From an uncultured Verrucomicrobiae bacterium (GTDB taxonomy: Bacteria; Verrucomicrobiota; Verrucomicrobiia; Opitutales; JABDGR01), in assembly GCA_963765205.1 (NCBI GenBank), contig CAVXVB010000005.1, forward strand, positions 160,001-224,000: a DNA stretch of 64,000 nt. The letters run 5' to 3'. Of the stretch, positions 3,589 to 60,944 are shown one piece after another (positions within the stretch are counted from its first letter, which is position 1; each line of letters begins with the position of its first letter). The notes beneath the pieces are model-generated. The model was not told where the DNA came from. It ran no database searches and worked only from the letters and a program-made list of their open reading frames with translations. The position numbers and the translations under genes were made by a program.

Positions 3589-4338
3589 ATGAGCCTGCTC
3601 ACCTTCACCAACCGCACCGCCCTCGTCACGGGCGCGGGGCGGGGCATCGGCAAGGCCGTTGCCAAGAAACTCGCCGCCCAGGGCGTCAAGGTCCTGTGCG
3701 TGTCGAAAAACCCGGACTCCTGCGGAGGCGTCGCCGCCGCGGTGACCGTCGCCGGGGGCAAGGCCTTTGCGTATCCCGTGGACGTGGCCGACTCCGCCGC
3801 GGTCAAGGCCGTGTGCGAGCAAATCCTCCGGGAGCACGAGCGGGTGGACATCCTCATCAACAACGCGGGCATCACGCGCGACATGCTGTTGCTGCGCATG
3901 AGCGACGAGGACTGGCACGCCGTGCTCAACACCAACCTGTCGAGTTGTTTTTATTTCACCAAGGCGCTGCTGCAGCCGATGGCGCGGGCGCGCTGGGGGC
4001 GCATCATCAGCATTACCTCGGTGGTCGGCCTGATGGGCAACGCCGGGCAGGCCAACTACGCCGCGGCCAAGGCCGGGATGCTGGGCTTCACGAAGTCGCT
4101 CGCGCGCGAGCTGGCCGGGCGCAACATCACCGTCAACGCCGTCGCCCCGGGCTTCATCACCACGGACATGACCTCGAAGCTCTCCCCGGAAATCCTCGAA
4201 AACGTGCAGAAAGTCATTCCCCTGAAACGCTTCGGCGAGCCGGACGACGTGGCGACCATGACCGCCTACCTCGCCAGCGACCAGGCCGGTTATGTAACAG
4301 GGCAAGTTTTTACGGTTGACGGTGGCATGGTGATGTAG
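3589..4338 (+). CDS. fabG: 3-oxoacyl-ACP reductase
   Basis: TGAGRGIG, NNAGITRD, YAAAK, GQVFTVDGG; upstream of acpP-fabF. Confidence 0.97.
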   Translation: MSLLTFTNRTALVTGAGRGIGKAVAKKLAAQGVKVLCVSKNPDSCGGVAAAVTVAGGKAFAYPVDVADSAAVKAVCEQILREHERVDILINNAGITRDMLLLRMSDEDWHAVLNTNLSSCFYFTKALLQPMARARWGRIISITSVVGLMGNAGQANYAAAKAGMLGFTKSLARELAGRNITVNAVAPGFITTDMTSKLSPEILENVQKVIPLKRFGEPDDVATMTAYLASDQAGYVTGQVFTVDGGMVM

Positions 4339-4351
4339 GGCGGGCCGAGCA

Positions 4352-4380
4352 TTGACAGGTGCCAAATGAAAAGTTACGGT
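4352..4380 (+). promoter_or_regulatory. Sigma70-like promoter of TA operon 1 (likely leaderless)
   Basis: TTGACA-N17-TACGGT; ATG follows 7 nt later with no Shine-Dalgarno. Confidence 0.6.
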
Positions 4381-4387
4381 TTGGCTC

Positions 4388-4573
4388 ATGAAGAAAGCCG
4401 CCAGAAACGGAGTTCCCGTCCTCACGGATTGGGAGCCGACGCCCCGCCTCAAGCGTGCCATGCGTGAGGTGGACGCCGGGCGCGGGTTAATTTCGCTGGG
4501 TAATTACGAACAGGCCAGTGAATACTTTCGCCGTCTTTATGAAAGAAACCGCCCTAAATCGGCGCGCCGCTGA
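4388..4573 (+). CDS. Putative antitoxin (resembles RelB/DinJ C-terminal part)
   Basis: 61 aa, PTPRLKRAMREVDAGRGL motif, overlaps downstream YafQ-like toxin. Confidence 0.7.
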   Translation: MKKAARNGVPVLTDWEPTPRLKRAMREVDAGRGLISLGNYEQASEYFRRLYERNRPKSARR

Positions 4574-4928
4574 AGAATTGGGTTTCCTCTTCAGGACGGG
4601 GTGGGTGTCGCAGGAAGACTGGCAGCATCTGCTCTATTTGCTGTCCAAGGATGAACCGTTGCCCCCGGAATACCATGAACATCGGCTGACCGACAATTGG
4701 ACGGGGCATTGGGAATGTCATCTATCAGGTGACTTAATTGTCATTTACAAACGCAAACCCACCAGAATCATTTTTACGGCCATTGGCACGCATCAGGAAT
4801 TGTTCCATTCGCGCCGCCGCAAAGCCAAGGGCCGGAAACCGCCCCCAACAGACCTTGATGAAATCATCGAACGGGCCCTCAACAAGGCTGCGCGCGAAAT
4901 CAAACGCTGGTGGGCAGCGCGGCGGTAA
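4518..4928 (+). CDS. yafQ: YafQ/RelE-family mRNA interferase toxin with C-terminal extension
   Basis: PLPPEYHEHRLTDNWTGHWECHLSGDLIVIY...IGTHQELF; start uncertain. Confidence 0.85.
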   Translation: MNTFAVFMKETALNRRAAEELGFLFRTGWVSQEDWQHLLYLLSKDEPLPPEYHEHRLTDNWTGHWECHLSGDLIVIYKRKPTRIIFTAIGTHQELFHSRRRKAKGRKPPPTDLDEIIERALNKAAREIKRWWAARR

Positions 4929-5029
4929 GCGGACGCCGGCCCCCCGCCCTCGTTTTTTACGGTTGACGGCGGCATGGCAATGTGAAGGCTTGCCTCCATT
5001 CAAACCTCAACCCTTTCCCACTCACGACT

Positions 5030-5290
5030 ATGGCGGATAAATCCATCGAACAGCGCGTTAAAGACATCATCGTCAGCCAGCTCAACGTCAACGAAGAGCA
5101 GGTGACGCCCCAGGCTTCCTTTCTCGACGACCTCGGGGCGGATTCCCTTGACCTGGTCGAATTGATCATGGCCTTCGAGGAGGAGTTCAAAAACGAGATC
5201 AAGGGCGAAATCCCCGAGGCCGAGGCTGAAAAGCTCACCACCGTCGGCCAGGTTGTGGACTACATCAAGGCGAAGTCCGGCGCGAAATAA
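5030..5290 (+). CDS. acpP: Acyl carrier protein
   Basis: [20 protein letters not shown]. Confidence 0.97.
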
Positions 5291-5353
5291 GCGCCGTTTT
5301 TTCCCGCGCCGGCCTCCTCTTGCGCGCCGGATTTTATTTTTTTGGTTTGCCGC

Positions 5354-6610
5354 ATGGATACCGCGCCGAAATTCCCCCGGGTGGTGGTCACGGGCCTCGG
5401 GGCCGTTACCTCCCTCGGCCACAATGTGCCCGACTTTTGGGCAGGCTTGCTCGCGGGCCGCAGCGGCATCCGCCGCATCGAGCGCTTCGACGTCACGGAC
5501 TACCCGTGCAAGGTCGGCGCGGAGGTGCGCGACTGGGACCCGGCGAAGTTCATGGACCCCAAGGAAGTCCGGCGCAACGATCGTTATACGCATTTCGCCG
5601 TCGTCGCCGCGCTCCAGGCCATGGCCGACGCGAATCTGACCGCCGCACAGACCGACCCCGACCGCATGGGCGTCATCGTCGGCTCGGGCATCGGCGGCCT
5701 CGAAACCATCGGCAAGCAATCCAAGGCGCTCTTTGACGGCGGCCCGCGCAAGGTGTCGCCGTTCATGATTCCCTCGCTCATTTCAAACATGGCCGCCGGC
5801 GTGATTGCCATTGCCACCGGCGCGAAGGGGCCGAATTTCGGCGTGGTTTCCGCCTGCGCGACCGGCACGCACGCGCTCGGCGCCTCGCTGCGCGCCATGC
5901 AGTTTGGCGAGGCGGACGTGATGATCGCCGGCGGCAGCGAGGCGGCCATCACCAATTTGGGCTACGGCGGATTTTGCGCGGCGCGCGCGATGAGCACGAA
6001 TTTCAACGACCAGCCCGAGCGCGCCAGCCGCCCCTTCGACAAGCTGCGCGACGGCTTCGTGATGGGCGAGGGCGCGGGCGTCCTCGTCCTCGAAACGCTC
6101 GAACACGCCCGCTGGCGCGGCGCGCGCATTTACGCCGAACTGGCGGGCTATGCCGCTACCTGCGACGCCCACCATATCACCAGCCCCGACCCCACCGGCG
6201 GCGGCCTCGCCCGGGCCTTGCGCACGGCGCTGAAGACCGCCGGCCTCACTCCCGGAGAGGTGGACTATATCAATGCCCACGGCACCTCGACGCCCTACAA
6301 CGACAAGTTCGAGACCTTGGCCGTAAAGACCGTCTTTGGCGACCAGGCCTACAAAATCCCAATGAGCTCGACCAAATCCATGACCGGGCACCTGCTCGGC
6401 GCGGCAGGCGGCATTGAGGCCATCGTTTGCCTCAAGGCCATCGAAAGCGGTGAAATTCCTCCCACCATCAATTTGGAGGAGCAGGATTTTCCCGATTGCG
6501 ATTTGGACTATGTGCCCAACGTCAAACGCACCCATAAGACGCGCGTGGCCCTCAGCAGCAACCTCGGCTTCGGCGGCCATAACGCGGTCGTGGTGTTCAA
6601 GGCGATCTAA
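5354..6610 (+). CDS. fabF: Beta-ketoacyl-ACP synthase II
   Basis: RVVVTGLG, SACATG, YINAHGTST, KSMTGHLLGAAG, GFGGHN. Confidence 0.97.
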   Translation: MDTAPKFPRVVVTGLGAVTSLGHNVPDFWAGLLAGRSGIRRIERFDVTDYPCKVGAEVRDWDPAKFMDPKEVRRNDRYTHFAVVAALQAMADANLTAAQTDPDRMGVIVGSGIGGLETIGKQSKALFDGGPRKVSPFMIPSLISNMAAGVIAIATGAKGPNFGVVSACATGTHALGASLRAMQFGEADVMIAGGSEAAITNLGYGGFCAARAMSTNFNDQPERASRPFDKLRDGFVMGEGAGVLVLETLEHARWRGARIYAELAGYAATCDAHHITSPDPTGGGLARALRTALKTAGLTPGEVDYINAHGTSTPYNDKFETLAVKTVFGDQAYKIPMSSTKSMTGHLLGAAGGIEAIVCLKAIESGEIPPTINLEEQDFPDCDLDYVPNVKRTHKTRVALSSNLGFGGHNAVVVFKAI

Positions 6611-6750
6611 TCCATATCTGGCAGAGGAATGAGCGGGGGCGGACGGGGGGCCTTTCAGTCAATCCGCGCTTGCGCGTTTACAGGGAACCCGGCAAAGTGC
6701 CCACCTATCCCAGCCGTCCTCTCCGGCGGCCCCATCCCACCCCCTGACTC

Positions 6751-7341
6751 ATGCGTAAAAAACTATTCTACTTCTCCGGCCTGGCGCTTTTGTCGGCCAT
6801 TTATGCCGCGCAACCCCCCGCCCTGACATCCAGTCCCGCGCCCATTACATTTCCGGTTTACGGCTTTAGCATCAATCCGTTTGAGACACAGACTGATGGC
6901 TTGGTGCTCCAGGCGCTGCAAATGAGCTGGCCCATCGTTCCTTTGCCGTCGGACAAAAACAAGGGCTTCGCCCCCGCCATCAATGTTATGGTCTGGCCAG
7001 CCACCGAGGACATGGCTCAATACGAGGCCAAGCAGCGGCTGGACCTGCAGGCGCACAACATGACCATTCAGCACGAAAGCATTAACAAGGACAACACCGA
7101 GTGGACGCTCGAATACGTCGGCGTGGGCAATGGCGGTGCGGCGATGCATTGGTATGCCCACATCGTCAATGGGGGCAAACGCATTTACATCGCCACCGGC
7201 ACCACGCCCGACGAGATGTGGAGCCTGTATGGCGACAAAGTGAAGGCGTGTGTGGACAGCCTCAAGTCTACCGGCACCGCCCAGATCGGCCCGCTGACCG
7301 CGCCGGCGACAACCGTGCCCCCCCTCAAGTTGACGCCTTAA
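6751..7341 (+). CDS. Secreted hypothetical protein (possibly PsbP/DcrB-like fold)
   Basis: Signal peptide; PAINVM...RIYIATGT...KACVDSL pattern; fold is inferred. Confidence 0.6.
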   Translation: MRKKLFYFSGLALLSAIYAAQPPALTSSPAPITFPVYGFSINPFETQTDGLVLQALQMSWPIVPLPSDKNKGFAPAINVMVWPATEDMAQYEAKQRLDLQAHNMTIQHESINKDNTEWTLEYVGVGNGGAAMHWYAHIVNGGKRIYIATGTTPDEMWSLYGDKVKACVDSLKSTGTAQIGPLTAPATTVPPLKLTP

Positions 7342-7398
7342 TATATAACATGGCTTCCGCCCAATTTCAGCGTCGGGTTTTCAAGCTGCGCTTCATCT

Positions 7399-8451
7399 AT
7401 GAACTGGCCCCCATTCATTTTGCCGGCGATAAGTCTTTGCCTGTGGTCGGTTGCAAAAGGCGCGGATGCACCTGCTCCGGCGGTCGCCTCGACTTCGGCC
7501 AGCTCCGCGACCTCCGTGGCGGTTGCACCCGCGGCCGCCAAATCAGAATCGCTGCTCTTCGCCTATTTTATCGGCCAAGCGGATGGCCTGCATCTCGCCT
7601 GGAGCGACGACGGCTTTCAATGGACCGCGCTCAAAGGCGACCAAATGTTCCTCACGCCCCAGGTCGGCAAGGAAAAACTCATGCGCGATCCGTCCATCCA
7701 GCGCGGGCCGGACGGCGTGTTCCACTGTGTCTGGACGTGCAGTTGGAATGACCACGGCATTGGCTACGCCGACTCGCAAGACCTTATCCACTGGTCGGCG
7801 GAAAAATTCATCCCGCTCATGGAAAACGACCCCGCCACGCGCAATTGCTGGGCACCCTCGCTTTTTTACGACGCCGCGGGCGCGCAGTGGTTCATCATCT
7901 GGTCGTCCACTGTCCCCGGCAAATTCCCCGAGACCGACGGCCAGGACAAAAGCGAGAGCGACGCTGTCGGCTACAACCACCGCATCTATTACACCACCAC
8001 TAGGGACTTCACCACTTTCAGCCCCTCGAAGCTGCTGTTCAACCCCGGCTTCAACTGCATTGACGCGGCGCTTTTCCAAGACGGCAAAAAATACGTCCTC
8101 GTGTTCAAGGACGAGACCAACGTGCCCTTCCCGGTGCAGAAAAACCTCAAGCTCGCCTTCGCCGACCATCCCGCAGGCCCCTACACCGGCGTCACCGCGC
8201 CCATCAGCCCCAAGGATCCGAAAACCGGCCAAAGCCTATGGTCCGAAGGCCCCACGCCGGTAAAAATCGGCAACCAATGGCTGATTTATTTCGACGAATA
8301 CCGCGACGGCCGCTATGGCCTTATAACCTCAACGGATTTGAAAACTTGGACGGACGGCGCCGGCACATTCACCCTCCCCCAAGGCATCCGCCACGGCACC
8401 ATCTTCCACGCCCCGCCGGACATTATTGAAGCTCTGAAAAAGGTGGAGTAA
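7399..8451 (+). CDS. Secreted glycoside hydrolase family 43 protein
   Basis: GLHLAWSDDG, LMRDPSI, NCWAP, HRIYYTTT, CIDA, EGPT, RHGT. Confidence 0.88.
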   Translation: MNWPPFILPAISLCLWSVAKGADAPAPAVASTSASSATSVAVAPAAAKSESLLFAYFIGQADGLHLAWSDDGFQWTALKGDQMFLTPQVGKEKLMRDPSIQRGPDGVFHCVWTCSWNDHGIGYADSQDLIHWSAEKFIPLMENDPATRNCWAPSLFYDAAGAQWFIIWSSTVPGKFPETDGQDKSESDAVGYNHRIYYTTTRDFTTFSPSKLLFNPGFNCIDAALFQDGKKYVLVFKDETNVPFPVQKNLKLAFADHPAGPYTGVTAPISPKDPKTGQSLWSEGPTPVKIGNQWLIYFDEYRDGRYGLITSTDLKTWTDGAGTFTLPQGIRHGTIFHAPPDIIEALKKVE

Positions 8452-8500
8452 GGGCGACGGATGGGATAGGACATCTGCGGAGCCGCCTGGTCCCAGCCTT

Positions 8501-9078: not shown

Positions 9079-9123
9079 ATTTAGGCTTTGCTGCGACAGG
9101 GAACAGGGCTTGAGAAACCTCCT

Positions 9124-9164: not shown

Positions 9165-9201
9165 GAGACAATTCCCAGAACACGATTAATAATTTAAAAA
9201 A

Positions 9202-10394: not shown

Positions 10395-10399
10395 TCAGT

Positions 10400-13098: not shown

Positions 13099-13654
13099 GT
13101 GCCTCCTCCCGATTCTCCATCCCCTCCGCCCAACCTTTACCTCGCCGGTTTCATGGGCACCGGCAAATCTGCGCTCGGCCGCAAACTGGCCGAGCTGAAG
13201 AACCTGCGTTTCATTGATTTCGGACGACCTTATCGCGCGCGGCGCGGGCAAGCCCATCGCCCAGATTTTCGCCGACGAAGGCGAGGAGGAGTTCCGCCGG
13301 ATGGAGCGCGAGTTCATTGAGCGGGGCCACCCCGGGCGCGGCTGCGTTGTGGCGCTCGGCGGCGGGTTGGTGGCGCAGCCGGGGATGATCGAGGCGCTGC
13401 GCGCCCGCGGTGTCCTCGTCTGCCTCATCGCTTCACCCGAGACGATTCTCCAGCGCACGCGCGGCAACCCCGCGCGCCCGTTACTCAACGTGCCCGACCC
13501 CGCCGCGCGCATCAGCGCGCTGCTTGCCGAACGCGAACCCTACTACCAGCGCGCCGGCACTTGCATCATGACGGACGGCCGTTCGCTCGGCGACCTCCTT
13601 GCGCACCTTGACCGCATTTACCGCCGCGAGGCGCGGAATTATCCGGCCAAGTGA
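13099..13654 (+). CDS. aroK: Shikimate kinase; 1-nt frameshift near 13219
   Basis: GFMGTGKS P-loop, then IF..EGEEEFRRME, ALGGG, RPLL, REPYY in the shifted frame. Confidence 0.9.
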
Positions 13655-13663
13655 ATTAAGAAT

Positions 13664-13733
13664 TCAGAAGTTTGGAGTCAGAAGTTTGGAGTCAGAAGTT
13701 TGGAGTCAGAAGTTTGGAGTCAGAAGTTTGGAG
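13664..13733. repeat. Tandem repeat, 5 exact copies of TCAGAAGTTTGGAG
   Basis: Direct reading; a double 7-mer unit, with an AT-rich partial mirror at 13775-13812. Confidence 0.95.
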
Positions 13734-29418: not shown

Positions 29419-29889
29419 TTATTTTTGCCGGTTGCGCCAATAGTCGCGGAACGCCTCCAGCCGCGGCAGGCTTTCGCGGTCTTTCGCGCGGTTGGCGGCG
29501 CGCTTGCTTTTGATGATGTCATCCGGATGGCAGACATGAAACCCATCCACCTCCACACGCCGCGCCCACGCTTCGGCAAAGGTTTCCAAGCCGTCGGGCG
29601 CAAACACCAGATCAAGGTCAAACGGGCCGGTCTTCAACTGCACGAAATCTTTGCCGCGGGCAATTTCCGCCGCCTGGGTGTCGCTCAATGAAAATCCCAG
29701 TTCGCGCAACGCCGCCACCAGGGCCGCGCCGTTCTGCGCGGACTTTTGCACAAACAAATCGGCGTCCTGGGTGGTATCGGGATAGCCGAGGAGAATGGCG
29801 CCGGATTTGCCGATGAACAAATACTGGATGCCGTGCCGTGCAAACGCGTCGCGGATTTCCTGCGCCTGCCGGTATTCAAAAGTCGCCAT
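29419..29889 (-). CDS. Nucleotidyltransferase-fold protein (putative toxin)
   Basis: YLFIGKSGAILLGYPDTTQDADLF, DLVF, IIKSKRAANRAKD. Confidence 0.75.
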   Translation of the reverse strand: MATFEYRQAQEIRDAFARHGIQYLFIGKSGAILLGYPDTTQDADLFVQKSAQNGAALVAALRELGFSLSDTQAAEIARGKDFVQLKTGPFDLDLVFAPDGLETFAEAWARRVEVDGFHVCHPDDIIKSKRAANRAKDRESLPRLEAFRDYWRNRQK

Positions 29890-29896
29890 GCGGGTA

Positions 29897-30109
29897 TTAC
29901 CGATGATAGCCCAGCCAGGTGGGCAGATTATTTTCGCACCACGTCCGGTATTCTTCCATGGTGTCAAAGGCCCGGAACGGCGCGTCATCCAACACCGGCT
30001 TGTAGGTGCGGATAAAAGCGTAGCGCATCCGCTGTTCGAGCGGGCGCCGGGCGGCGGCTTCAAATTCCGCCAGCCAGTCGGCAGGGATGGTGCGCGTAGC
30101 GGAGGGCAT
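29897..30109 (-). CDS. Small partner protein (putative antitoxin)
   Basis: About 70 aa directly upstream of the NTase gene; preceded by TTGACA-N16-CAAGAT. Confidence 0.65.
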   Translation of the reverse strand: MPSATRTIPADWLAEFEAAARRPLEQRMRYAFIRTYKPVLDDAPFRAFDTMEEYRTWCENNLPTWLGYHR

Positions 30110-30200
30110 GGTCGGCATCTTGCGGCAATATCGAAAAATGTCAATCTGTTCAGGTCGTCGGCGGCGAAGCAATTTGGTTCCGGTTCATCAAGAGGGCTAA

Positions 30201-31082
30201 GAGCTTATCCGTAAATAAGGATTGCGTTGAGAAGGCGGCGGGATAAACTGCGGGGATGCCGCGACTATCCTCCTGGGAAATCTCTGATGAATTCTGGGCC
30301 AAAGTCGAGCCTTTGGTTCCCGCGCGCGCCGGCCGGAAGGCGGGCGGGCGCTACCGTCGCGCCGCAGGCGCGGGCCGCAAGGCCCTCGCGCCTCGACGCA
30401 TCTTCGAGGCGGTGGTTTACGTGCTGCGCACGGGTTGCCAGTGGAAAGCGCTGTCCAAGGCCCGGTATGGCAGCGCCAGTTCCGTGCACAAATACTTTCA
30501 GCAGTGGCACGCCGCCGGATTCTTCGAGGCGTTGTGGCGGGCCGGTCTGGCCGACTACGATGAATTGGAGGGCATCGCGTGGCGGTGGCAAAGCATCGAT
30601 GGCTCCCTGGTCAAGGCCCCTCTGGCGCGCGAAGCGGTGGGAGCCAACCCCACCGACCGGGGAAAAAAATGGGAGCAAGCGCAGCGTGCTGGTGGACGCC
30701 CGTGGCGTCCCGCTGTCGCTCATCGTCGCCGGGGCCAATGAACACGACGTGACGCTGGTGCGCCGCACGTTGCGCCAGCGCCACGACCGGCGCACGGCCC
30801 ATTTGTGTGCCGACAAGGGTTACTGGGGGAAACCGGGCCTGCGCACCATGCGCCAATACGGCTACCGTCCGCATGTGCCTGCCCGCGGAGCCAAACCAGC
30901 CCCGCGCCGATCCACCGGCCAAGCCCGTCGCTGGGTGGTGGAACGCACCGCTTCCTGGCTCAACCGCTACCGCAAACTCCTCGTGCGGTTTGAGAAAACC
31001 GCCGCCTCCCACGAAGCCTTGCTCTGTCTCGCCAGCGCGCTTATTGTTTACAGACGAACAACTTTTATTTACGGATAAGCTC
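30201..31082 (+). mobile_element. IS5-family insertion sequence, 882 bp
   Basis: Perfect 18-bp terminal inverted repeats gagcttatccgtaaataa / ttatttacggataagctc; TAA on both sides (30198-30200, 31083-31085). Confidence 0.95.
30256..31078 (+). CDS. IS5-family transposase in two frames joined at an A7 run (30663-30669)
   Basis: ISDEFW..VEPL, YVLRTGCQW, SIDG, NPTDRG | KNGSKRSVLVD, ADKGY, RWVVERT..WLNRYRKLLVRFEK. Confidence 0.92.
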
Positions 31083-37568: not shown

Positions 37569-39416
37569 TCAGTGGGGGTAATTCCTGGGGGTTGATGTCA
37601 CGAGTTTTTGTATGGCTGCGTCGCGCGCCGGCGACTCGGGCAGGGTTTGCAACCAGGCCGCTGCGCCATGCGGGAAGGTCCGCGCCCAATTGCTGCTCGC
37701 CACACTGGCACTCACGGCATCACTTACCCCTGGCTCGGTCACCTGGGCCATCAGAGCCGAGGCCAGGGCGGGATTCTTCGCCACCACGGTGGAAATCAGT
37801 TTGGCGACACTCTGGTCATAAGTCGCACCAGTGGCAACTTGGTCCAGCCACGCCAAGGTGGCCGTTGGATCGGTTTTGGTCATATTGACTGAAATATTTT
37901 GGATGGCCTGGCTCTGCGCGGAAGCGTCGGTCAGTTGATTCAGATATTGGGCGGCCAGATTGGGGTCTTGGCCACTGGCCTCCACCACCGCGGAATACAG
38001 CGCCGCGGGATTCGCCGGCTGAAGACCGCTGGCCCAAGTTAAAAGGGCTTGTGGGTCATAATTGGCCCAACCCGTAGCCACTCCGTCCAGGGCCTGCACT
38101 TGGTTCGGGCCGGGGGGTAAACCCAAGGCTGCTGTTGCGGCCAGTGGGGGAAAAGCAGGATTCGCCCCCGCCCAAGTCTGGAATGCGTTAAGGTAATAGG
38201 CTTGCGTCTGCTTTCCATCGGGAAGTTGGGCCAACGCCGCCAAGCCTTGCTGAGTTTGTGTCGCAAGCCACGCTCCATAGATCAGGCCGGTCGCATCATT
38301 GCGTGCCTTGGGGTCATCAATCAGCCCAACTTTGGAAAACGCCAGGCCGGGATCATTAAGCGCAAGCGCTTTAACTAGCAAACGAATCTGCAAATCGCGG
38401 TTGTCACTAGGCGGTGAATTGACAAACTTATCAAGTTGCTCCAACATCATCCCCACCACAGGGGGGTCGGTGGGTTTCGTTTCGAGCGCCGGCGCAATCT
38501 GGGCTTGGACAGGCAGCGGGGATATTTTTCCTGCACTGGAATTGCCACCGACTGCAACAACCGTTGCCGGGCGATTGGGCAGTTCGACGTTGGATGGCGT
38601 GAGTTTGGGGGCGGAAGCCGTTTTCTGATTGGCCGTGTCCGAAGTTTCATTCGTCTTTTGCAGACTGATAATTAGCGGAGCAGCCACAACGAGCATGACT
38701 GCTGTGACAACAAGTATTTTGGCTTGGGTGCTCATAAGTAGAATTTTGAGAAAAATGCTTTCCGCCGCGATCCCCGCACCCGCCAGTGAGACCCCGGCCA
38801 CATTCGCCGCCAATCCGGCGGGCGCCGCCTTCACCGAATTCGCTGTGATGGCTGTGGCCAGCATCGCTGACGACACCGTCACCCCCCGCCGCGCAAAATG
38901 CGCGCGCAGTTTTTCCAGCGCCCGGTCCACGCGCTTGCGCGCGGCGTCTTCGCTCACGCCGAGGGCGGAGCCGACTTCGCCGTGGTTTTTATTTTGGAAA
39001 AAGCGCAAGAGCACCGCCTCGCGGTCGGCGGCGTTGAGCGCGCACACGGCCTCGTCGAGCACGGGTTGCAGTGCGTCCCAATTGGGTTCGCGGGCGTGGG
39101 CGGTTTGGTTCATGGCGTAGGCCTCCTGTTCGCGGACGCGGCGGCGGTGCTCGTGGCGGCGGGTGTTGTTGGCGGTAAACCGGGCCGTGGTGTAGAGCCA
39201 CCCGGCAAGGCTGGCGCGGCGGGACAACGGACGGGCCTGCCGCGCCAATTCCGTAAAAACCCCCTGCGCAACATCCTGGGCCAACCCGGTGTCACCGCCC
39301 ACCTGCCGCCAGGCCGCTGAATAAACCAGATCCACGTAACGGCGAACCACCTCGGCGAAGGCGGCCTCATCGCCGTGCTCGGCATACTGGCGCAGTAAAT
39401 CGCAGTCGGGGATCAT
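37569..39416 (-). CDS. ECF sigma-70 factor with TM segment and C-terminal helical-repeat domain
   Basis: DEAAFAEVVRRY, AQDVAQGVF, GWLY, REAVLLRFF, RVDRALEKLR; TM ILVVTAVMLVVAAPLII; W...DP repeats. Confidence 0.93.
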   Translation of the reverse strand: MIPDCDLLRQYAEHGDEAAFAEVVRRYVDLVYSAAWRQVGGDTGLAQDVAQGVFTELARQARPLSRRASLAGWLYTTARFTANNTRRHEHRRRVREQEAYAMNQTAHAREPNWDALQPVLDEAVCALNAADREAVLLRFFQNKNHGEVGSALGVSEDAARKRVDRALEKLRAHFARRGVTVSSAMLATAITANSVKAAPAGLAANVAGVSLAGAGIAAESIFLKILLMSTQAKILVVTAVMLVVAAPLIISLQKTNETSDTANQKTASAPKLTPSNVELPNRPATVVAVGGNSSAGKISPLPVQAQIAPALETKPTDPPVVGMMLEQLDKFVNSPPSDNRDLQIRLLVKALALNDPGLAFSKVGLIDDPKARNDATGLIYGAWLATQTQQGLAALAQLPDGKQTQAYYLNAFQTWAGANPAFPPLAATAALGLPPGPNQVQALDGVATGWANYDPQALLTWASGLQPANPAALYSAVVEASGQDPNLAAQYLNQLTDASAQSQAIQNISVNMTKTDPTATLAWLDQVATGATYDQSVAKLISTVVAKNPALASALMAQVTEPGVSDAVSASVASSNWARTFPHGAAAWLQTLPESPARDAAIQKLVTSTPRNYPH

Positions 39417-39503
39417 GCGGGGATTATAATCATATCTATCCGCCGGAAGACAAACCGGACAAAAATAATTCACCGCCAAGCCGCGAAGGGCAGGAATCGG
39501 AGA

Positions 39504-39574
39504 ACCACCGATTACACGGATAACACGGATTTGGCTGAGCCCTTACCATCCGTGCTATCCGTGTAATCCGTGGT
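39504..39574. repeat. Inverted 9-mer array (CACGGATAA)n / (ATCCGTG)n
   Basis: accaccgattacacggataacacggat - 17 nt - atccgtgctatccgtgtaatccgtggt. Confidence 0.88.
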
Positions 39575-39593
39575 AAAATTCGCTTCTTTACGC

Positions 39594-41516
39594 CTAATTC
39601 ACCGCCTGGGCCTTCTGAATGGTTTTCAGCAGATCCGCGCGCTGCTGGTCCGTCAGCGTGGCGGACTCGACGGCGCTGGTCGCGGCGGCGGCGTCTTTCT
39701 TGGCCCACTGGTTCACGACGTTGTTCAACTGATTTTGCTGCGTGGTCACGTCGCTGATGGAAGTCGCCCAGGTGAACGAGGCCGCGGGGTTGTTTGTGCT
39801 TTCCGACGAAATAATCTGGACGACCGCGCCGTCCCGCGCCGACCCGGCGGGCAGCGTGTCCACCCATTGGGACGCGGCGGTCGGATTTTGCTGCACCCAA
39901 TTGGCAGCCACAGCGGAGGCCGCGGCGTCCAGGACGATGCCCGCAGGCAGCGTGCCCAGCTGCGTAGCCGCCGAGGCGGGATCCTGCGCGCTCCAAGTGG
40001 ACAACACGGAACCTAGCGCCTTATCGCGGGTGTCGCCCGCGGGCAATCCCTGGGCCGCGGTCCAGGCCGCGGTGGGATCCGTCGTGGTGAGGTTGCTAAA
40101 AACGGTCGCCAGCGAATTGGTTTGCGCCGGGCCGGGCGGCAGCGCCTCCGCCCAAGCGAGCGCCGCCTGCGGATCAGCCGCCACCCATTGGCCCGCCAGT
40201 TGGTTCGCCACCGCGCTGAAATTGGGGTCGTTCTGCAGGTTTTGATTAATGTAGGCGGATGCGGCGACCGGGTCGTTCGCGTCCCATGCCTGCATGACGT
40301 TTATTAAGGCGTCGCCCCGGGCCTGCCCGTCGGAGGCCGGCAGCGCCTGCGCCCACGCCAGGGCACCGTTGAGGTCGCACTGCGCCCAGGCCGAGGCCAT
40401 TTGGCTAATGGCCCCGTCGCGGGTTGAGGCATCGGGCATTTGCGCGATGAACGCGACGGCGGCGGTGGGATTCGTTTCGTCCATTTGCGCAAGCACGTTC
40501 TGCACCGCGTCGTCGTAAGCCTGCCCGGTGGCCACGTTGCCGACCCACGCCAGGGCGGCGGCCGGGTCTTGTTGCGCCCAATTGCCCGCAATTTCGTTGA
40601 TCATTTCATTGCGGTTGTCTCCGTTGGGCAAGGTGGCAAAGAGGGCGGCGGCCGCGTTGGGGTCGTGCTGGGACAAGGGGTACAACGAATTGTCAATCGC
40701 ACCCGTGCGCGTTTCGCCGGGGGGCAGGCTGTTGGCGAAGGCCAGTGCGGCGGTTGGGTCTTCCTGCGCCCAGAAATAGGAAAGATTGTCCAGCGCCCAC
40801 TGCCGGGACTCGCTGACCGGCAAATTCAAGGCGGACGTGGAAGCCGCCACGGGATCCACGCCCGTCCAGTAAGCATAAATATAACTGAGCGCCATGCTGG
40901 ACTGTTGCCCGCTCGGCAGTTGCTTGAGCAAAGCCATGGCCCCTTGGGGATTGGACAAGCTCATAACACCCAAAATATTGTTTTCCACGTTGGCCTGCAC
41001 GCTGGCGTTGCCAATTTGTTTAAGCCCGGCAATCGCGCCCGCCGGGTCCTTGGCCGCCCAGGCTTGAAACAGGACGCGGTAATCGCCGTTGCGGTTGTCC
41101 TGCAGCTCTTTGGATTTGACCCAGGCCACGGCGTCGGTTGGGTCTTCGGCGGCCATGCGGGAAAGCAGCATATTCTTGAGTTGGTTCGTCGCATAGGTGG
41201 GGGGCATTTTCAGCAAGGCGTCCAGCGCGCCGCGAACTTCGCCGGGCTTCAGCCCGGCCACGTAGCGCAGCGTGTCGCGCACGATGTCCATTTGGTTGCG
41301 GCCTGCCCCCTTGAACAAGTCCGTCAACGTAATGTCGCCGCCGGGTGGGGCGGCGGTGGCTGCGGCCATCCGCGCCTCCAGCACGGTTTGGGACTTCTGC
41401 ATCGCGGCGATGTCATTGCGCAGCCGGCTGATCTTCCGCTGCTGGTAAATCATCGCCAGCATCCCCGCCAGAAAAAATCCGGCGGCCGTCAGCATGATTT
41501 TAATTTTTTCGGACAT
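39594..41516 (-). CDS. Membrane-anchored helical-repeat protein, paralog A
   Basis: N-terminal TM plus coiled coil, then many ~36-aa W(A)xxDPxAAxxWxxxLPxG repeats. Confidence 0.85.
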   Translation of the reverse strand: MSEKIKIMLTAAGFFLAGMLAMIYQQRKISRLRNDIAAMQKSQTVLEARMAAATAAPPGGDITLTDLFKGAGRNQMDIVRDTLRYVAGLKPGEVRGALDALLKMPPTYATNQLKNMLLSRMAAEDPTDAVAWVKSKELQDNRNGDYRVLFQAWAAKDPAGAIAGLKQIGNASVQANVENNILGVMSLSNPQGAMALLKQLPSGQQSSMALSYIYAYWTGVDPVAASTSALNLPVSESRQWALDNLSYFWAQEDPTAALAFANSLPPGETRTGAIDNSLYPLSQHDPNAAAALFATLPNGDNRNEMINEIAGNWAQQDPAAALAWVGNVATGQAYDDAVQNVLAQMDETNPTAAVAFIAQMPDASTRDGAISQMASAWAQCDLNGALAWAQALPASDGQARGDALINVMQAWDANDPVAASAYINQNLQNDPNFSAVANQLAGQWVAADPQAALAWAEALPPGPAQTNSLATVFSNLTTTDPTAAWTAAQGLPAGDTRDKALGSVLSTWSAQDPASAATQLGTLPAGIVLDAAASAVAANWVQQNPTAASQWVDTLPAGSARDGAVVQIISSESTNNPAASFTWATSISDVTTQQNQLNNVVNQWAKKDAAAATSAVESATLTDQQRADLLKTIQKAQAVN

Positions 41517-41551
41517 GGATGAATGGATAAAATGACCGTTAAGGTTTATTT

Positions 41552-43477
41552 CTAATTTGACGACGATACCGTCTGGATCGTCTTGAGCAAGTCCGTGCGC
41601 TGCTGGTTGGTCAGCGGGGCGGATTGCACGGCGCTGGCGGCGGCGGCGGGATCCTTCTTGGCCCATTGGTTCACGACGTTGTTCAACTGGTTCTGCTGCG
41701 TCGTCACGTCGTTGATCGAGGCCGCCCACGCGAACGAGGTTGCGAGGTTGTTTTGCCCTTCCGCAGAAATGATCGAGACCACCGCGCCATCCCGTGCCGA
41801 CCCCAGTGGCAGGGTGTTCACCCATTGCGAAGCGGCGGCGGGATTTTGTTGCACCCAGTTGGCCGCGACCTCCGCGGTGGCATCGTCCAGCGCCAGGCCG
41901 GCGGGCAGCGTGCCCAGCAGCGTCGCGGCCTGGGCGGGGTCCTGCGCGCTCCAAGTCGCCACCACGGTGCCCATCGCCTTGTCCCGGCTGCTGCCGTCGG
42001 GCAATTGCTGGGCCGAAGCCCACGCGGCTTGCGGATCCGTCACAGAGATGTTGCTAAAAACCGTCGCCAGCGAATCGGCCTGCGCCTGGCCAGGGGGCAG
42101 CGCCTCGGCCCACGTCAGCGCCGCCTGCGGATCGGGGCCGACCCAGTGGCCCACCATTTGTTCCGCCACGTAGTTGAAGTCGGGATCGCTTTGAAAATTT
42201 TGCATGATATAGACTGAAGCCGCCTGCGGGTCGGTATTGTCCCAGGTCCGCATCACATTCCGCAACGCATCAATGCGCGTCTGCCCTTCGGAAGTGGGCA
42301 GCGCCTGCACCCACGCCAGCGCGCCGGGGAGGTCGGTCTGCGCCCACGCCGAAGCCAGTTGGGTGATCGCGCCGTCGCGCGTCGAGGCATTGGGCATTTG
42401 CGCGATAAAGGTGGCCGCATCCGTGGGATCCGTGGTGTCCATTTGCGCGAGGACGCCCTGCACCGCTTGGTCGTATGTTGTCCCGGTGGCGATATTGCCC
42501 ACCCACGCCAGCGCGGCCGCCGGGTCTTGCTGCGACCAATTCGCGGCGATTTGCGTGATGCTGCTGTTGCGGTCCGCGCCCAAGGGCATCGCGGCGGCCA
42601 AATTGGCGGCGCTCGCCGGGTCGGATTGGGACAAAATATTCAAAACCGGCCCCAAGGCGCTGTCGCGCGTGGCGCCCGCCGGCAAACTGTTCACGAACGC
42701 AAGCGCGGCCTGCGGGTCTTGTTGTGCCCACATCGCCGACAGGCTGCCCAGCGCCGTCAGGCGCGCCGCGCTCGCGGGCAAATTCAACGCCGCCGCCGAC
42801 GCCCCCGCCGGGTCCTCCGCCGCCCAGTAACGGAAGATCGAAGAGAGACCGTTGACCGATTGCTCGCCGGCCGGCTTCTGATTGAACAAGTCTAGCGCCC
42901 CCTGGGGGTTGGTCAGGCTGATCAATCCGAGCAGATTATTTTCAATGTCCGCCTGTAGGCTGGAATTGCCGATTTGCGCAAGTCCGGCGATGGCCGCCCC
43001 CGGATCATTGGCCGACCACGCCTGAAACAACGTGCCAAAATCATTTCGGCGGTCGTCCGGGTTGTCGTTGGATTTGACCCAGGCGGATGCGTCCGCCGGA
43101 TTCTCGTCGGCCCAGCGCGCCAGGAGCAAGGCCCGCACCGTGTTGGTCGCGGTGGTGTGAAGCATTTTCTTCACCGCGTCCAGCGCGCCGGCCATTTCAC
43201 CGGGCTTGAGGCTGTCCACGTAGCGTAGCGCGTCGCGCGCAATGTCCAGCGGGCTGCGGGCGCCGGCCTTGAACATTTCCGCCAGCGTGCCGACCGGGCC
43301 GGGCGCGTCGGCGCGATCGACCACCACCATCCGCGCCTCCAACCTGGCATTGGATTGGTGGATCGCCGCCGCCTGTTCCTGTAACCGCGCGAGTTCCCGC
43401 TGCTGGGAAATCATCGCCAGCATCCCCGCCAGAAAAAATACCACGGCGGCCAGGAAAATTTTGATTTTTCCGGTCAT
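41552..43477 (-). CDS. Membrane-anchored helical-repeat protein, paralog B
   Basis: Colinear with paralog A throughout (FFLAGMLAMI...VTTQQNQLNNVVNQWAKKD). Confidence 0.85.
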   Translation of the reverse strand: MTGKIKIFLAAVVFFLAGMLAMISQQRELARLQEQAAAIHQSNARLEARMVVVDRADAPGPVGTLAEMFKAGARSPLDIARDALRYVDSLKPGEMAGALDAVKKMLHTTATNTVRALLLARWADENPADASAWVKSNDNPDDRRNDFGTLFQAWSANDPGAAIAGLAQIGNSSLQADIENNLLGLISLTNPQGALDLFNQKPAGEQSVNGLSSIFRYWAAEDPAGASAAALNLPASAARLTALGSLSAMWAQQDPQAALAFVNSLPAGATRDSALGPVLNILSQSDPASAANLAAAMPLGADRNSSITQIAANWSQQDPAAALAWVGNIATGTTYDQAVQGVLAQMDTTDPTDAATFIAQMPNASTRDGAITQLASAWAQTDLPGALAWVQALPTSEGQTRIDALRNVMRTWDNTDPQAASVYIMQNFQSDPDFNYVAEQMVGHWVGPDPQAALTWAEALPPGQAQADSLATVFSNISVTDPQAAWASAQQLPDGSSRDKAMGTVVATWSAQDPAQAATLLGTLPAGLALDDATAEVAANWVQQNPAAASQWVNTLPLGSARDGAVVSIISAEGQNNLATSFAWAASINDVTTQQNQLNNVVNQWAKKDPAAAASAVQSAPLTNQQRTDLLKTIQTVSSSN

Positions 43478-53610: not shown

Positions 53611-53615
53611 AAGCG

Positions 53616-55686: not shown

Positions 55687-55721
55687 TTGGTAAGGGTAGT
55701 GTTTGGTGGTCCGGTCCAGCT

Positions 55722-56443: not shown

Positions 56444-56462
56444 CGCGCAACACCTCCCGTAA
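55992..56462 (+). CDS. DUF1801/YdhG-like protein
   Basis: LRKLILKYNPGMTE...GKSCILF..V.DLP; GGAGG upstream. Confidence 0.7.
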   Translation: MTAQELDKYTAGLTADQTKAIHSLRKLILKYNPGMTESVNSGKWLTGLIIYCMGDGPFIYALGPRPEGMTTFHMMPYYGSTVLREKHGAAFKKFETGKSCILFQKVTDLPQQGLIDVIDKGTKATVEIIRARMKKPGKKQTQPVRGTALRNAQHLP

Positions 56463-56485
56463 CCACGGAGTTCTTTTCGCCGCCG

Positions 56486-56851
56486 CTACTTCACCAACCG
56501 CAGGGTGAGGGGATAATGATAGCACAGGCCGTCAGACGCTTTGAGAGCGGCTTTAATTGAGCAGACTAGGAAGCAAATAACCAGCGCGATCAAAAGCGGA
56601 ATTCCGATCAAGAGGGCAACCAGCAGCATACCGCACACCGCGTAAATGATCACTGAAATATGAAAATTCAGCGCTTCGCGGGCGTTGGCGGCCACATATT
56701 CGGAATCCCGCTTCATCACCAGATACACGACCAGCGGCAGGAGGAACGGCACCCCCAAAAACCATGAAAGATGGCTCAGGACACTCCAGAGCCGGTCACT
56801 GCTGCTGGGCAGCGGCCCGGCTTGCATATAGGGAGGAGAGAGGGTGGACAT
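56486..56851 (-). CDS. DUF4870 (Tic20-like) membrane protein
   Basis: LSHLS...PLVVYL...AREALNFHIS...YHYPLTLRLVK. Confidence 0.88.
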   Translation of the reverse strand: MSTLSPPYMQAGPLPSSSDRLWSVLSHLSWFLGVPFLLPLVVYLVMKRDSEYVAANAREALNFHISVIIYAVCGMLLVALLIGIPLLIALVICFLVCSIKAALKASDGLCYHYPLTLRLVK

Positions 56852-56973
56852 GGTGAAGATGGGTTGGCTCCTTTATACCACACCGCGGAAAATCGTCCAT
56901 TATAATTTCCGGGCATGGTTCTAATCGGCGGGCGGGGGCCAATCTGCCGGAACGACAGGTCAAGTCTTCCCTA

Positions 56974-57002
56974 TTGACGCAATTAGCCTTTCCTTTTAGC
57001 TT
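56974..57002 (+). promoter_or_regulatory. Sigma70-like promoter of TA operon 2 (likely leaderless)
   Basis: TTGACG-N17-TAGCTT; GTG follows 7 nt later. Confidence 0.6.
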
Positions 57003-57009
57003 ATCGCCC

Positions 57010-57228
57010 GTGAGCACGAACACCTTGCCCGCTGCCCGCGGATCCGTCGCCCGACGCCAAAGACATCCTGTTCGGGTGGCAGGGGCTTCTCGCGTGCCCA
57101 ACGCCGAGACCGTGCGCGCGCTCCAAGAGGCTGAATCAGGCTTGGGCGTGCGCCGGTTCGCCACCGTCAAGGGCTTCATGGCCCATCTTCACCGCCATGC
57201 GCGCGCCAAGCAGCACGCCTCGGTTTGA
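57010..57228 (+). CDS. Putative antitoxin (resembles RelB/DinJ C-terminal part)
   Basis: VPNAETVRALQEAESGLGVRRFATVKGFMAHL. Confidence 0.75.
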   Translation: MSTNTLPAARGSVARRQRHPVRVAGASRVPNAETVRALQEAESGLGVRRFATVKGFMAHLHRHARAKQHASV

Positions 57229-57595
57229 GCGCGAATATGGGGAAGCGCTGGCGAGCGGGGAGTTTTCTACCGACGACTTCGAGCGGCTGGTCTATGTCCT
57301 CTGCAAATACGAACGATTGCCGACGGAGGAATTGCAGCGTTATCAGGAACACGCCTTGGCGGATGAGTATTGGGGCTACTTGGAATGCCATCTTTCCAGG
57401 GACTTTATTGTCATTTATAAAAAATTTTCCGATGAAGTGCGTTTTGCCCGGATCGGGCGGCATCGTCAATTGTTCCGCCACCGCAAGCATGGTGAAAAAG
57501 GCGTGTCGCCGACTGAAACCATGGGTGGATCAGTGGAAGATGCCCTGGCGAAAACCACCCGCGCCCTCAAAAAGTGGTGGCAGCGCAAGGGTTAA
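57197..57595 (+). CDS. yafQ: YafQ-family toxin with C-terminal extension
   Basis: STPRFEREY...YQEHALADEYWGYLECHLSRDFIVIY...RIGRHRQLF. Confidence 0.85.
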   Translation: MRAPSSTPRFEREYGEALASGEFSTDDFERLVYVLCKYERLPTEELQRYQEHALADEYWGYLECHLSRDFIVIYKKFSDEVRFARIGRHRQLFRHRKHGEKGVSPTETMGGSVEDALAKTTRALKKWWQRKG

Positions 57596-57649
57596 GGTGA
57601 ATTTGGTCGGCCAAAACGGCCCCCTATTTTCGCCGTGCCTTTTGCCCAA

Positions 57650-57681
57650 CTAAGCACTAAGAACTAGAACACCAGAGCACT
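57650..57681. repeat. 7-mer tandem array (AGCACTA type)
   Basis: taagcac-taagaac-tagaaca-ccagagcact upstream of ispG. Confidence 0.6.
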
Positions 57682-57691
57682 TTCCTTTCCC

Positions 57692-59791
<2,100 letters not shown>

Positions 59792-59814
59792 CAAACCGGC
59801 CCAGTATCCACGGA

Positions 59815-59842
59815 TTGACGTAACGCAGCTTTGTGCTATTTT
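59815..59842 (+). promoter_or_regulatory. Sigma70-like promoter (likely leaderless)
   Basis: TTGACG-N16-TATTTT with TG extension; ATG follows 6 nt later. Confidence 0.55.
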
Positions 59843-59848
59843 AAGATA

Positions 59849-60127
59849 ATGACTCTCCGCCAGAAAATCACCCGCATCAAGCGCACGTTGCGCAAAGACC
59901 CACAGGCCACCTGCCCGCGGCTAGAATTGCGCGGAGTCACTTGGAAAAAGCACTCCAATTACAAGCACACCACCCGCGCCTGGGACAAGGCGCGCATCGA
60001 ATTGGGCCTGGCCACGCCGCTCGATATCCAGCGAGAAAATTCCGCCTTTCGTTTCGACCCGAAATTTCCACCGCGCATCTTGCGTTTCAGCACCCATGCC
60101 CCCGTTCGATCCCGCCGCGTTTCATGA
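59849..60127 (+). CDS. Small basic protein, putative antitoxin
   Basis: 92 aa, overlaps the downstream NTase-like gene. Confidence 0.6.
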   Translation: MTLRQKITRIKRTLRKDPQATCPRLELRGVTWKKHSNYKHTTRAWDKARIELGLATPLDIQRENSAFRFDPKFPPRILRFSTHAPVRSRRVS

Positions 60128-60854
60128 GGTTTTTCAGGCTTTGAACGCGCTGCCGATTGTCGGCGGGCAAGCGATTAATGCCTGGGCGGAGCGGTATCTT
60201 CCCCGGGAGCCGGCTTTGCAGGAATTTATCCCCTTCCTTAGCAAAGATGCGGATTTGTTTGGCGAACGCGTGCAGATTCAGCGCGGGCCGCCCCCGCCCG
60301 GCTGGGTGGTCGCTTATTATTCCGAGCCTCGCCAGTCCGCAGTGGCGCTGTTGACCAAGGATTTGGCCCAGGGCGAACAATTGCGCGTCGAGGTCATGCG
60401 CGCCGTCCATGGTCTGGATCTCCATGATCTGAGTGACGCCACGCTGGTCGAAATCGCGCCGGGCCGCGTCTACCGCTTGCCTTCGCCGCTGCGCCTGATC
60501 AAGGCCAAAATCGCCAATGTCCACGACTTGACCCGCCACGAACGCCCGCAGGACCTCAAGCATGTGCGGATGCTCGTGCTAGTCTGTGCGGCATATCTGC
60601 GCGAACTTCACGCCGCCGTGTGCGCCGGCCAAGCCCCGGAGCGCAGCCTGATCGACGCGTTGCAGGAATTGGACAAGCTCCTTCGCTCGCCCAAAGCCCT
60701 CGCCATTGCAGCCCGGCACCGCGTGGCGCTCACGCCTGCACTCCCGCTTGACCTGGCGGCGGATCAGATCCCAAAACTCGCCGCATTTTATACGCGCCGG
60801 TCTACAGAGGCAGGCGGAAAAGCCAAGAAACCCCGCTCCCGGCGCAAACCATAG
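60096..60854 (+). CDS. Nucleotidyltransferase-fold protein (putative toxin)
   Basis: IVGGQAINAWA...SKDADL, IKAKIAN...RPQDLKH. Confidence 0.7.
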   Translation: MPPFDPAAFHEVFQALNALPIVGGQAINAWAERYLPREPALQEFIPFLSKDADLFGERVQIQRGPPPPGWVVAYYSEPRQSAVALLTKDLAQGEQLRVEVMRAVHGLDLHDLSDATLVEIAPGRVYRLPSPLRLIKAKIANVHDLTRHERPQDLKHVRMLVLVCAAYLRELHAAVCAGQAPERSLIDALQELDKLLRSPKALAIAARHRVALTPALPLDLAADQIPKLAAFYTRRSTEAGGKAKKPRSRRKP

Positions 60855-60944
60855 GACGCGGTTTTCATTGACTTGCATGGCCAATGGGTTGAGCCTGAGT
60901 TGGTGCCCGCGGGGGAGAAAGGATTTTCTTATGGCTGAACTAAA

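Follow-up and report, generated by a model that had tools for sequence, protein, structure and literature searches.

Duplicated gene ends around small insertions in an Opitutales genome as possible scars of kin-DNA import by single crossover

The window analysed here is a stretch of 64,000 nucleotides (64 kb) of contig CAVXVB010000005.1 from the genome of an uncultured Verrucomicrobiae bacterium of the order Opitutales (GCA_963765205.1, hereafter G000; 4.0 Mb, 92% complete, genes called anew for this analysis). In this window fabG and ispG are each followed by a small cassette with a putative toxin-antitoxin (TA) pair and, beyond it, by a second, stranded copy of the gene's own end. Similar duplications were found elsewhere in the genome around TA or other cargo, and on balance we lean towards reading them as scars of a recombinase-free import of DNA from related lineages through a single crossover in a gene end. 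The duplicated-end pattern is more general than first reported and is most likely a known footprint rather than a new mobile-element system.

Duplicated gene ends in the window and across the genome

The preliminary description, made from the sequence alone, had noticed tail duplications at both loci, and these proved to be real. The fabG copies (27 of 32 nt identical, spacing 647) end with TAG at 4336-4338 and with TGA in the second copy at 4954-4985, which sits directly 5' of the acpP leader and has its own stop, as had been stated. This does not hold for ispG (40 of 51 nt identical, spacing 1129), where the second copy at 60865-60915 has lost the homologous stop, the next one in frame being TGA at 60936-60938, 7 codons further on; this copy covers about 17 codons and not the 10-13 given for both. 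The inserts measure about 0.6 kb at fabG and 1.1 kb at ispG, and both leftovers are in frame with the toxin stop, which for two cases is compatible with chance (1 in 9). Each cassette had also been credited with a promoter: the ispG site passes the consensus scan and the fabG site falls below its threshold (Table 1), while a TTGAC box is aligned at the equivalent place before the homologue of the fabG cassette in genome G003.

Table 1. Features of the fabG and ispG loci in the window (positions of the 64-kb stretch)
Feature	Position	Strand	Evidence or remark
fabG (3-oxoacyl-ACP reductase), anchor gene	3589..4338	+	Pfam adh_short_C2, E 3.6e-67
Working fabG tail, ends TAG	4307..4338	+	AT-rich codons as in relatives with fabG abutting acpP
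Promoter-like site of fabG cassette, TTGACA-17-TACGGT	4352..4380	+	Read from sequence; below consensus-scan threshold
61-aa putative antitoxin open reading frame (ORF)	4388..4573	+	Putative role, from position
YafQ-family toxin with C-terminal extension	4518..4928	+	PF15738, E 1.7e-20; TIGR02385 above cut-off
Stranded native fabG tail and probable acpP promoter	4954..4990	+	Tail 4954-4985; TTGACG 4963-4968, 16-nt spacer, AAGGCT 4985-4990
acpP, native downstream neighbour of fabG	5030..5290	+	PP-binding
Second small-ORF/YafQ pair, 5' of ispG	57076..57595	+	PF15738, E 1e-16; internal negative control
ispG (GcpE), anchor gene	57692..59791	+	PF04551, E 1.4e-124
Working ispG tail	59736..59791	+	Pair alignment; stop 59789-59791
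Sigma70-type promoter-like site of ispG cassette	59815..59842	+	Consensus scan: 1 found, 0.3 expected
92-aa putative antitoxin, conserved partner of nucleotidyltransferase	59849..60127	+	Family alignment; modelled complex
MenT1/AbiEii-like nucleotidyltransferase, 252 aa, putative toxin	60096..60854	+	Atlas features 0.97; model pLDDT 88; Foldseek
Stranded ispG tail	60865..60938	+	Homology 60865-60915; homologous stop lost
Low-GC ORF 3' of stranded ispG tail	60945..61271	+	GC 0.435 over first 161 nt

For the genome-wide scan, the last 48 nt of each gene were compared with non-coding DNA of the next 4 kb after removal of dispersed repeats, and matches with a score of at least 25 were kept. Downstream matches were obtained for 12 of 2308 gene tails against 3 of 6924 shuffled pairings (Fisher p 1.2e-5); individual controls gave 1, 0 and 2 matches in other genes' flanks, 2 on the opposite strand, 1 upstream and 3-6 in within-gene windows. 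Gene heads scanned upstream returned 11 matches versus 0 and 1 in controls, so the phenomenon is not confined to the 3' tails of essential genes as initially supposed; paralogue remnants made further head controls noisier (5 downstream, 4-7 interior). When 2568 genes were scanned again under stricter conditions, 13 tails were recovered within 4 kb and 4 at 4-20 kb, with none on the opposite strand at 4-20 kb.

The 12 near tails belong to fabG, ispG, nadA, a HAD hydrolase, a DEAD helicase, rny, a STAS protein, clpP, acpS, ubiE, rho and one unnamed gene, one repeat protein having been dropped from this list. NadA, HAD, STAS, ClpP and AcpS were identified by Pfam; rny, ubiE, rho, the DEAD helicase, ilvC, gltX, hemL and pilT we take to be such from their sequences by eye. 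Cargo was of TA type in five of the 12 cases, and in the other seven it consisted of a sensor kinase, a membrane protein, a SHOCT protein, Vsr and methylase fragments with an insertion sequence (IS), an ECF gene, cargo of unknown kind, or a ClpX zinc-finger fragment only. IS-like ORFs lie inside the acpS and ilvC inserts, and the Vsr and methylase fragments are found in the acpS insert only.

Over 15 aligned tails the repeats are 21-93 nt long (32 nt at fabG, 51-56 nt at ispG; three of the 15 at or below 30), and homology runs to the stop or to within a few bases of it, except where the stop has been lost. In seven cases on the same strand, the gap between the final stop of the cargo and the start of the stranded copy is 5-33 nt, a spacing that could result from later trimming or be a property of the process. 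At clpP-clpX, tail, spacer and head are duplicated in tandem without cargo. At this site (G000 C9:1420846-1421040; L038:1050-1256) an intact ORF of 64-69 aa is left that corresponds to the ClpX zinc-finger domain alone (PF06689) and could be either a stand-alone adaptor or a remnant. It should be added that at the gltX head duplication (G000 C8:214470-215530; L043) about 45 nt of upstream leader is present on both copies, around an RDD gene on the opposite strand.

Some candidates were discarded: C10:30312 (internal repeats of a WD-type protein), C5:318848 (resembling, as judged by eye, a tRNA end on the opposite strand), microsatellite-like intergenic repeats (12-mer filter) and matches with the second copy in a called gene. 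The main false positives of the repeat scans came from short tandem oligomer arrays, which are plentiful (at window 13653-13733 and at many intergenic sites). A general repeat finder run on the window placed neither tail pair among its 20 largest families, and no extra tails or heads above control were found at the cysJ-like/fabG, rseP/ispG, alr, leuS and other window junctions. A 245-aa ORF of low GC (0.44) is inserted 5' of fabG at window 2732-3469; it is not present in L187, and the 16-nt pyrimidine repeat found on either side of it is not above control. The ORF 3' of the stranded ispG tail had no family match in profile searches and is possibly older cargo.

The link to TA loci was assessed with 44 matches from five Pfam searches; two PIN matches in long frames and a third match that was the partner of a locus already counted were excluded, leaving 41. 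Five of these 41 are flanked by a gene-end repeat, one of them with its second copy inside another gene; the resulting 4/41 compares with 5/250 small non-TA genes (p 0.025), an enrichment biased upward by the choice of TA families after the cargo was known. TA loci are modestly enriched in terminal duplications, and the expectation that tails would be more often duplicated around TA genes passed, albeit weakly. The notion of a TA-specific system was not supported, with seven of the 12 tail cases holding other or no cargo and at least 36 of the 41 TA loci lacking a terminal duplication.

Native ends, empty sites and two coding histories

Comparison with relatives identifies what is native at fabG. 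Outside genera g1 and g3, the distance from the fabG stop to the start of acpP is 30-60 nt in 23 of 24 relatives, and the fabG tail of these relatives resembles the stranded copy of G000; judged from these alignments, it is the stranded copy that represents the old end of the resident gene, with the native neighbour behind it. Empty sites were also recognised at nadA (4 of 6 relatives), HAD (4 of 8) and clpP-clpX (5 of 9, gaps of 85-115 nt), all of them, including those at fabG, standing at genus to order level. Scoring of relatives for nadA, HAD, rho, gltX, hemL, clpP, rny and ilvC revealed no true duplication in any of them. At ispG, for which an empty-site comparison had also been suggested, the downstream region differs in 7/7 close relatives and so defines no empty site, and no tail copy exceeded the reverse-strand control in the 76 of 80 loci that were scored, the other 4 being too short. 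Three relatives (L167, L169, L175) possess a different TA-like pair directly 5' of hemL without head duplication, and for this reason the hemL site turns over too.

Missed by the preliminary description was that, in the alignments, the fabG leftover is common to the genus and conserved like a promoter. The stranded tail is present in G001, G004, G008, L186 and L187, 36-39 nt before acpP as counted from the second box, and the cargo between fabG and acpP in these five relatives differs (0.9-3.8 kb), comprising ECF-sigma fusion genes, a YafQ pair 56% identical to that of G000, or a reversed AbiEii-type pair. TTGACG and AAGGCT are invariant in 6/6 genomes or contigs with an insertion, while the 16-17 nt spacer varies and loses frame in L186; because the boxes are invariant while the spacer varies, we read the stranded fabG tail as the acpP promoter, a second function that it probably has. 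Intergenic TTGAC sites of G000 show a weak A/T signal at about that spacing, and the TTGACG-AAGGCT site itself scores below the promoter-scan threshold. The fabG-acpP gap is a lasting hotspot, with cargo later swapped or deleted. The working fabG tail has drifted to GC-rich codons in most g1 and g3 members; this was not seen in G000 and its sister L187 (support 97). As a separate observation, the ECF-sigma fusion genes belong to an expanded family and often make up the cargo, being present in the fabG-acpP gap of L032, L033, L034 and L186, at window 37569-43477, behind ilvC and behind C7:125250.

The copies differ in a manner not expected from simple decay. Among 13 pairs the stop codons were swapped in 6, the same in 4 and lost in 3, and under simulated local duplication with neutral decay 1.5 swaps would be expected (P 0.0016). 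Pooled changes comprised 28 synonymous versus 37 non-synonymous codons (P 0.066). In the ilvC pair, which was found later, all 7 differences over 22 codons are synonymous, and at the distant fabG locus of L203 a tail copy stands 37 nt downstream with 5 changes, all silent. In G007, a methyltransferase gene is followed by a new YafQ pair, a 104-nt tail copy, other genes and, about 2.5 kb farther downstream, an older YafQ pair beside lysA, the tail pair showing 7 synonymous and 4 non-synonymous changes of 35 codons. In G009 methyltransferase, YafQ pair and lysA are adjacent, and compared with the G007 layout this indicates that a donor-like arrangement exists in kin. Read in this way, the G007 locus has the layout expected if a fragment of kin DNA, with the gene end and its neighbour, displaced the resident downstream DNA. 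Judged from these comparisons, the copies carry two coding histories and differ like alleles. The earlier proposal that insertion supplies a donor-type end and displaces the old one agrees with the native neighbour, the empty sites, the stop swaps and the G007 layout.

Two coding histories are not what a local duplication-insertion would leave. Under that scenario, which we hold to be unlikely, non-homologous foreign DNA would enter through a pair of staggered illegitimate junctions, made by break repair or template switch, with the resident sequence copied, selection would keep the events straddling a gene end, and one copy would then decay. Such a course would account for the cargo-free clpP-clpX duplication, for the upstream leader included in the gltX copy and for non-synonymous decay in many stranded copies (37 codons), and repeats may lie across a start or stop just because such events can be survived, a possibility raised in the available text of Furuta et al. 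(PMC2853133). It is at odds with the stop swaps (6/13) and with the all-synonymous ilvC and L203 pairs, and matches rarely extend past the stop.

Cargo proteins and the search for a recombinase

The cargo of the two cassettes was described as antitoxin-toxin pairs, and this stands for the YafQ domain at fabG and for the MenT1-like fold at ispG; the 61-aa ORF at fabG, with a partner 61% identical in L186, had no match to any antitoxin family or model in profile searches. The fabG cassette resembles DinJ-YafQ in having a YafQ domain (its true start may be the ATG near 4539) behind a small upstream ORF, and differs from it in that the putative antitoxin fits no DinJ/RelB model. Both YafQ toxins of the window (57076-57595 and 4388-4928) carry a C-terminal extension ending in a basic WW motif, which is common to the family homologues, and the upstream ORFs of both fit no antitoxin model. 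The pair 5' of ispG has no terminal duplication, neither an rseP-tail nor an ispG-head copy being found. A further two-gene pair, nucleotidyltransferase-like, lies beside an IS5-like element 3' of alr (window 29419-31078), without terminal duplication.

The 252-aa protein of the ispG cassette had no sequence match in Pfam or PDB, and the best fold match of its model (pLDDT 88) was the MenAT1 entry 8an5 (Foldseek E 6.5e-6). The 92-aa ORF, for which an Atlas search gave no usable match, forms with the nucleotidyltransferase a conserved pair in 11 of 17 loci examined, the ispG locus counted; RHH_1 was detected in 6 of 11 members of the partner family, the N-terminal RHH domain being absent from the ispG-cassette copy, and an invariant NS motif of the family was modelled onto the catalytic motifs of the nucleotidyltransferase. 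The modelled complex of the ispG pair scored 0.83 versus 0.02 for the best of three controls (run agreement at least 88%, partner pLDDT at least 81), on a scale whose mark 116 of 157 solved pairs attained, as did 2 of 215 mismatched ones, and where likeness to a solved complex may inflate the score. These models suggest that the ispG cassette is a TA pair by function, and we put forward window 59849-60854 as a candidate new MenAT-type TA family, an un-annotated two-gene family in Verrucomicrobiota. With MenAT1 it shares a MenT1-like fold and a small upstream partner modelled on the catalytic motifs; it differs in the low similarity of the toxin (18% identity, TM about 0.4-0.5 to MenT1) and in the RHH-linked partner family.

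In agreement with the preliminary description, family searches found no integrase or transposase among the cargo ORFs of either cassette. The genome has 17 integrase-family matches, the nearest tyrosine recombinase being 119 kb from fabG and 173 kb from ispG, and no core shared by the target gene ends was seen in the aligned tails of 21-93 nt, which disfavours the trans-acting site-specific recombinase once suggested. No attC pair (RYYYAAC..GTTRRRY) occurs on either strand of the two cassettes, as had been said, and of 35 loose dif-like matches genome-wide none lies at either cassette (a weak test, since the dif of the host may differ from the consensus used). Integrative elements that restore the tail of their target gene are well established, and decayed or trans-mobilised elements of this kind, with the duplication as attL/attR and the integrase lost or a tyrosine recombinase of the genome acting in trans, would be consistent with the integrase-family matches 2.8 and 5.5 kb from the nadA and DEAD helicase anchors. 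We regard this explanation as improbable, considering the distances at fabG and ispG, the at least 12 unrelated targets without common core that would each need their own enzyme, and the existence of duplicated heads and of a cargo-free case. Moreover, no integrase-sized ORF or homologue was noticed in the five other filled fabG-acpP intervals, in an ORF listing without an integrase-profile scan.

The idea of cassettes circulating as non-autonomous, tail-bearing circles, with excision between the repeats and integron-like stacks, has in its favour the TA enrichment, the displacement-type locus of G007, the 5-33 nt spacing of stranded copies and a similar cycle of excision and reinvasion hypothesised for restriction systems (PMC2853133, available text). 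It is nevertheless very improbable in our view, first of all since homologous cassettes are at unrelated sites. Homologues of the ispG toxin were found in 17 of 400 other genomes at 20 loci, three with long flanking repeats of other kinds and none beside ispG, which contradicts the claim that cassettes travel with their own tail; of 12 YafQ matches in other family genomes, only that of G003 is at fabG. Stacks in G000 were not confirmed: 12 of 13 anchors lacked a third tail copy within 12 kb, and the weak match at acpS (21.5) is not aligned to the stop. Among the joints listed from the contigs of four runs none skips the fabG cassette (4338-4985), a weak argument given that contigs are prone to drop rare forms, and repeats 78-84% identical would presumably be poor excision substrates. 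In a comparison of four contig sets over 2600-7400, set X1, which may be the source sample, holds the fabG cassette; a 4013-4954 joint in X5 was rejected, one side being 25 nt and probably from another organism. L272, of another Opitutales family, has a homologue of the ispG cassette between the copies of a 138-nt direct repeat, and this repeat overlaps a short ORF which we take, by eye, to resemble an integrase C-terminus.

Proposed route and comparison with known systems

In the single-crossover import that we favour, DNA of a related lineage would carry the end of a gene X together with whatever follows X in the donor. This fragment would be trimmed and then circularised (or its free end joined illegitimately) and would integrate through one homologous crossover inside the last codons of X by host recombination, giving gene X with the donor end, the cargo, and then the resident's old end with the native leader and neighbour. 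A mirror event at a gene start would yield a duplicated head. Any gene end might serve as target, survivors being the events that spare the gene and the signals of the next one; TA pairs would be over-represented as common small imports that resist loss, and a leftover would persist where it also serves another purpose, such as the probable role of the fabG tail as acpP promoter, generating a lasting hotspot. Genes of the comEC and dprA families are present and Ku, of non-homologous end joining, was not found in this 92% complete genome, a combination that allows for natural transformation.

The route has an experimental counterpart. According to the available text of PMC3240628, an Escherichia coli substrate with homology on one side gave a duplication-diagnostic PCR product in 56 of 60 Lac- integrants, and 14 sequenced integrants had duplications of 109-950 bp attributed to a single crossover of a trimmed circle, true deletions by homology-facilitated illegitimate recombination (HFIR) making up 4 of 60 clones.

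Several points weigh against this route. Neither a donor nor a same-species empty site was found for the fabG or ispG locus, and at ispG no empty site could be defined at all. The duplications of 21-56 nt are shorter than in E. coli, and because of that some trimming after the event must be supposed. Pooled over the pairs, the excess of synonymous changes is weak; the 13 pairs were chosen by hand among matches reaching the stop, and a stop codon can be rebuilt at a junction. In the tree, G000 and L187 fall within the drifted-tail taxa at modest support values (41-89), a placement that calls either for retention or for a second event, be it conversion, import or a collapse with re-insertion. 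Furthermore, comEC and dprA occur also in 10-11 of 14 control genomes and say little about competence, and the model leaves unexplained the cargo's first arrival behind gene X in the donor.

A bolder extension, to which we give little credence, is a general host-run gene capture: kin fragments would become small circles of a gene end with the next transcription unit and dock at any homologous gene end, stranded ends that hide promoters would be permanent landing pads, essential operons such as fabG-acpP would host a recombinase-free, integron-like exchange of TA pairs family-wide, and junctions near stops would be set by the process, not by trimming.

Many chromosomal TA pairs have no mobile element alongside, and in G000 one route of entry can still be read from at least 12 scars, from empty sites in kin and from allele-like differences pointing to a donor; an overlapping promoter can, in addition, fix a hotspot inside an essential operon. 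The route covers only about a tenth of the TA loci tested. In the literature searched, of partial coverage and without supplements, we found no report on TA cassettes between allelic or duplicated core-gene tails, nor on an acpP promoter inside fabG or a stranded tail kept as promoter.

Among the systems compared, integron cassette arrays have IntI and attC sites and stacks of successive cassettes, none of which was observed here (nearest tyrosine recombinase more than 100 kb away). Site-specific integrative elements have their own integrase and a fixed att core, features likewise lacking, with an integrase match within 6 kb only at nadA and the DEAD helicase; pdif (XerC/D) modules differ by their flanking dif-like sites. 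The trimmed-circle crossover resembles our case in producing a gene end, foreign DNA and a second gene end by host recombination alone, and it differs, as far as the available text of PMC3240628 goes, in its setting of laboratory conjugation of E. coli with identical homology, 109-950 bp duplications and a frequency of about 6e-9 per recipient. HFIR, as presented in that text, likewise gains foreign DNA from one homologous anchor without a dedicated recombinase; it generally deletes recipient DNA with a 3-10 bp microhomology joint, whereas here the gene end is duplicated and the native leader and neighbour are kept. In the displacement arrays of type VI secretion system effector-immunity and rhs genes (PMC5361080, available text), an incoming module on a conserved gene also pushes older DNA downstream with no integrase known; there the new end alters protein function and the arrays are long, whereas in G000 the ends are equivalent and there is no stack of three. 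Hotspots of horizontal gene transfer that lack mobile genetic elements and are flanked by core genes (PMC5635113) show the fast cargo turnover of the fabG-acpP gap, and their abstract does not mention terminal duplications.

The closest relative is the insertion with long, variable target duplication (ILTD) of restriction-modification units without other mobile elements (Furuta, Abe and Kobayashi 2010, PMC2853133), in which, according to the available text, the repeats often span a start or stop codon and a cycle of release and reinvasion is hypothesised without evidence for release. Both have an addiction-type unit of less than 20 kb with no other mobile element (0.6 and 1.1 kb for the window cassettes), a long variable direct repeat (more than 30 bp there, 32 nt and 51-56 nt here) and repeats often over the start or stop. 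The empty site in relatives that marks ILTD is seen here for fabG, nadA, HAD and clpP-clpX at genus to order level, and none is defined for ispG. They differ in that the cargo here comprises TA or other genes instead of a restriction enzyme and methyltransferase, and that the repeats are shorter, more diverged, pinned to the stop and allele-like; the DNA breakage by restriction enzymes proposed in that paper cannot be supplied by ribonuclease or nucleotidyltransferase toxins. The footprint itself is already published there, and the G000 case works like ILTD with cargo outside its restriction-modification definition, offering a testable mechanism by which this long-unexplained footprint may arise without restriction enzymes.

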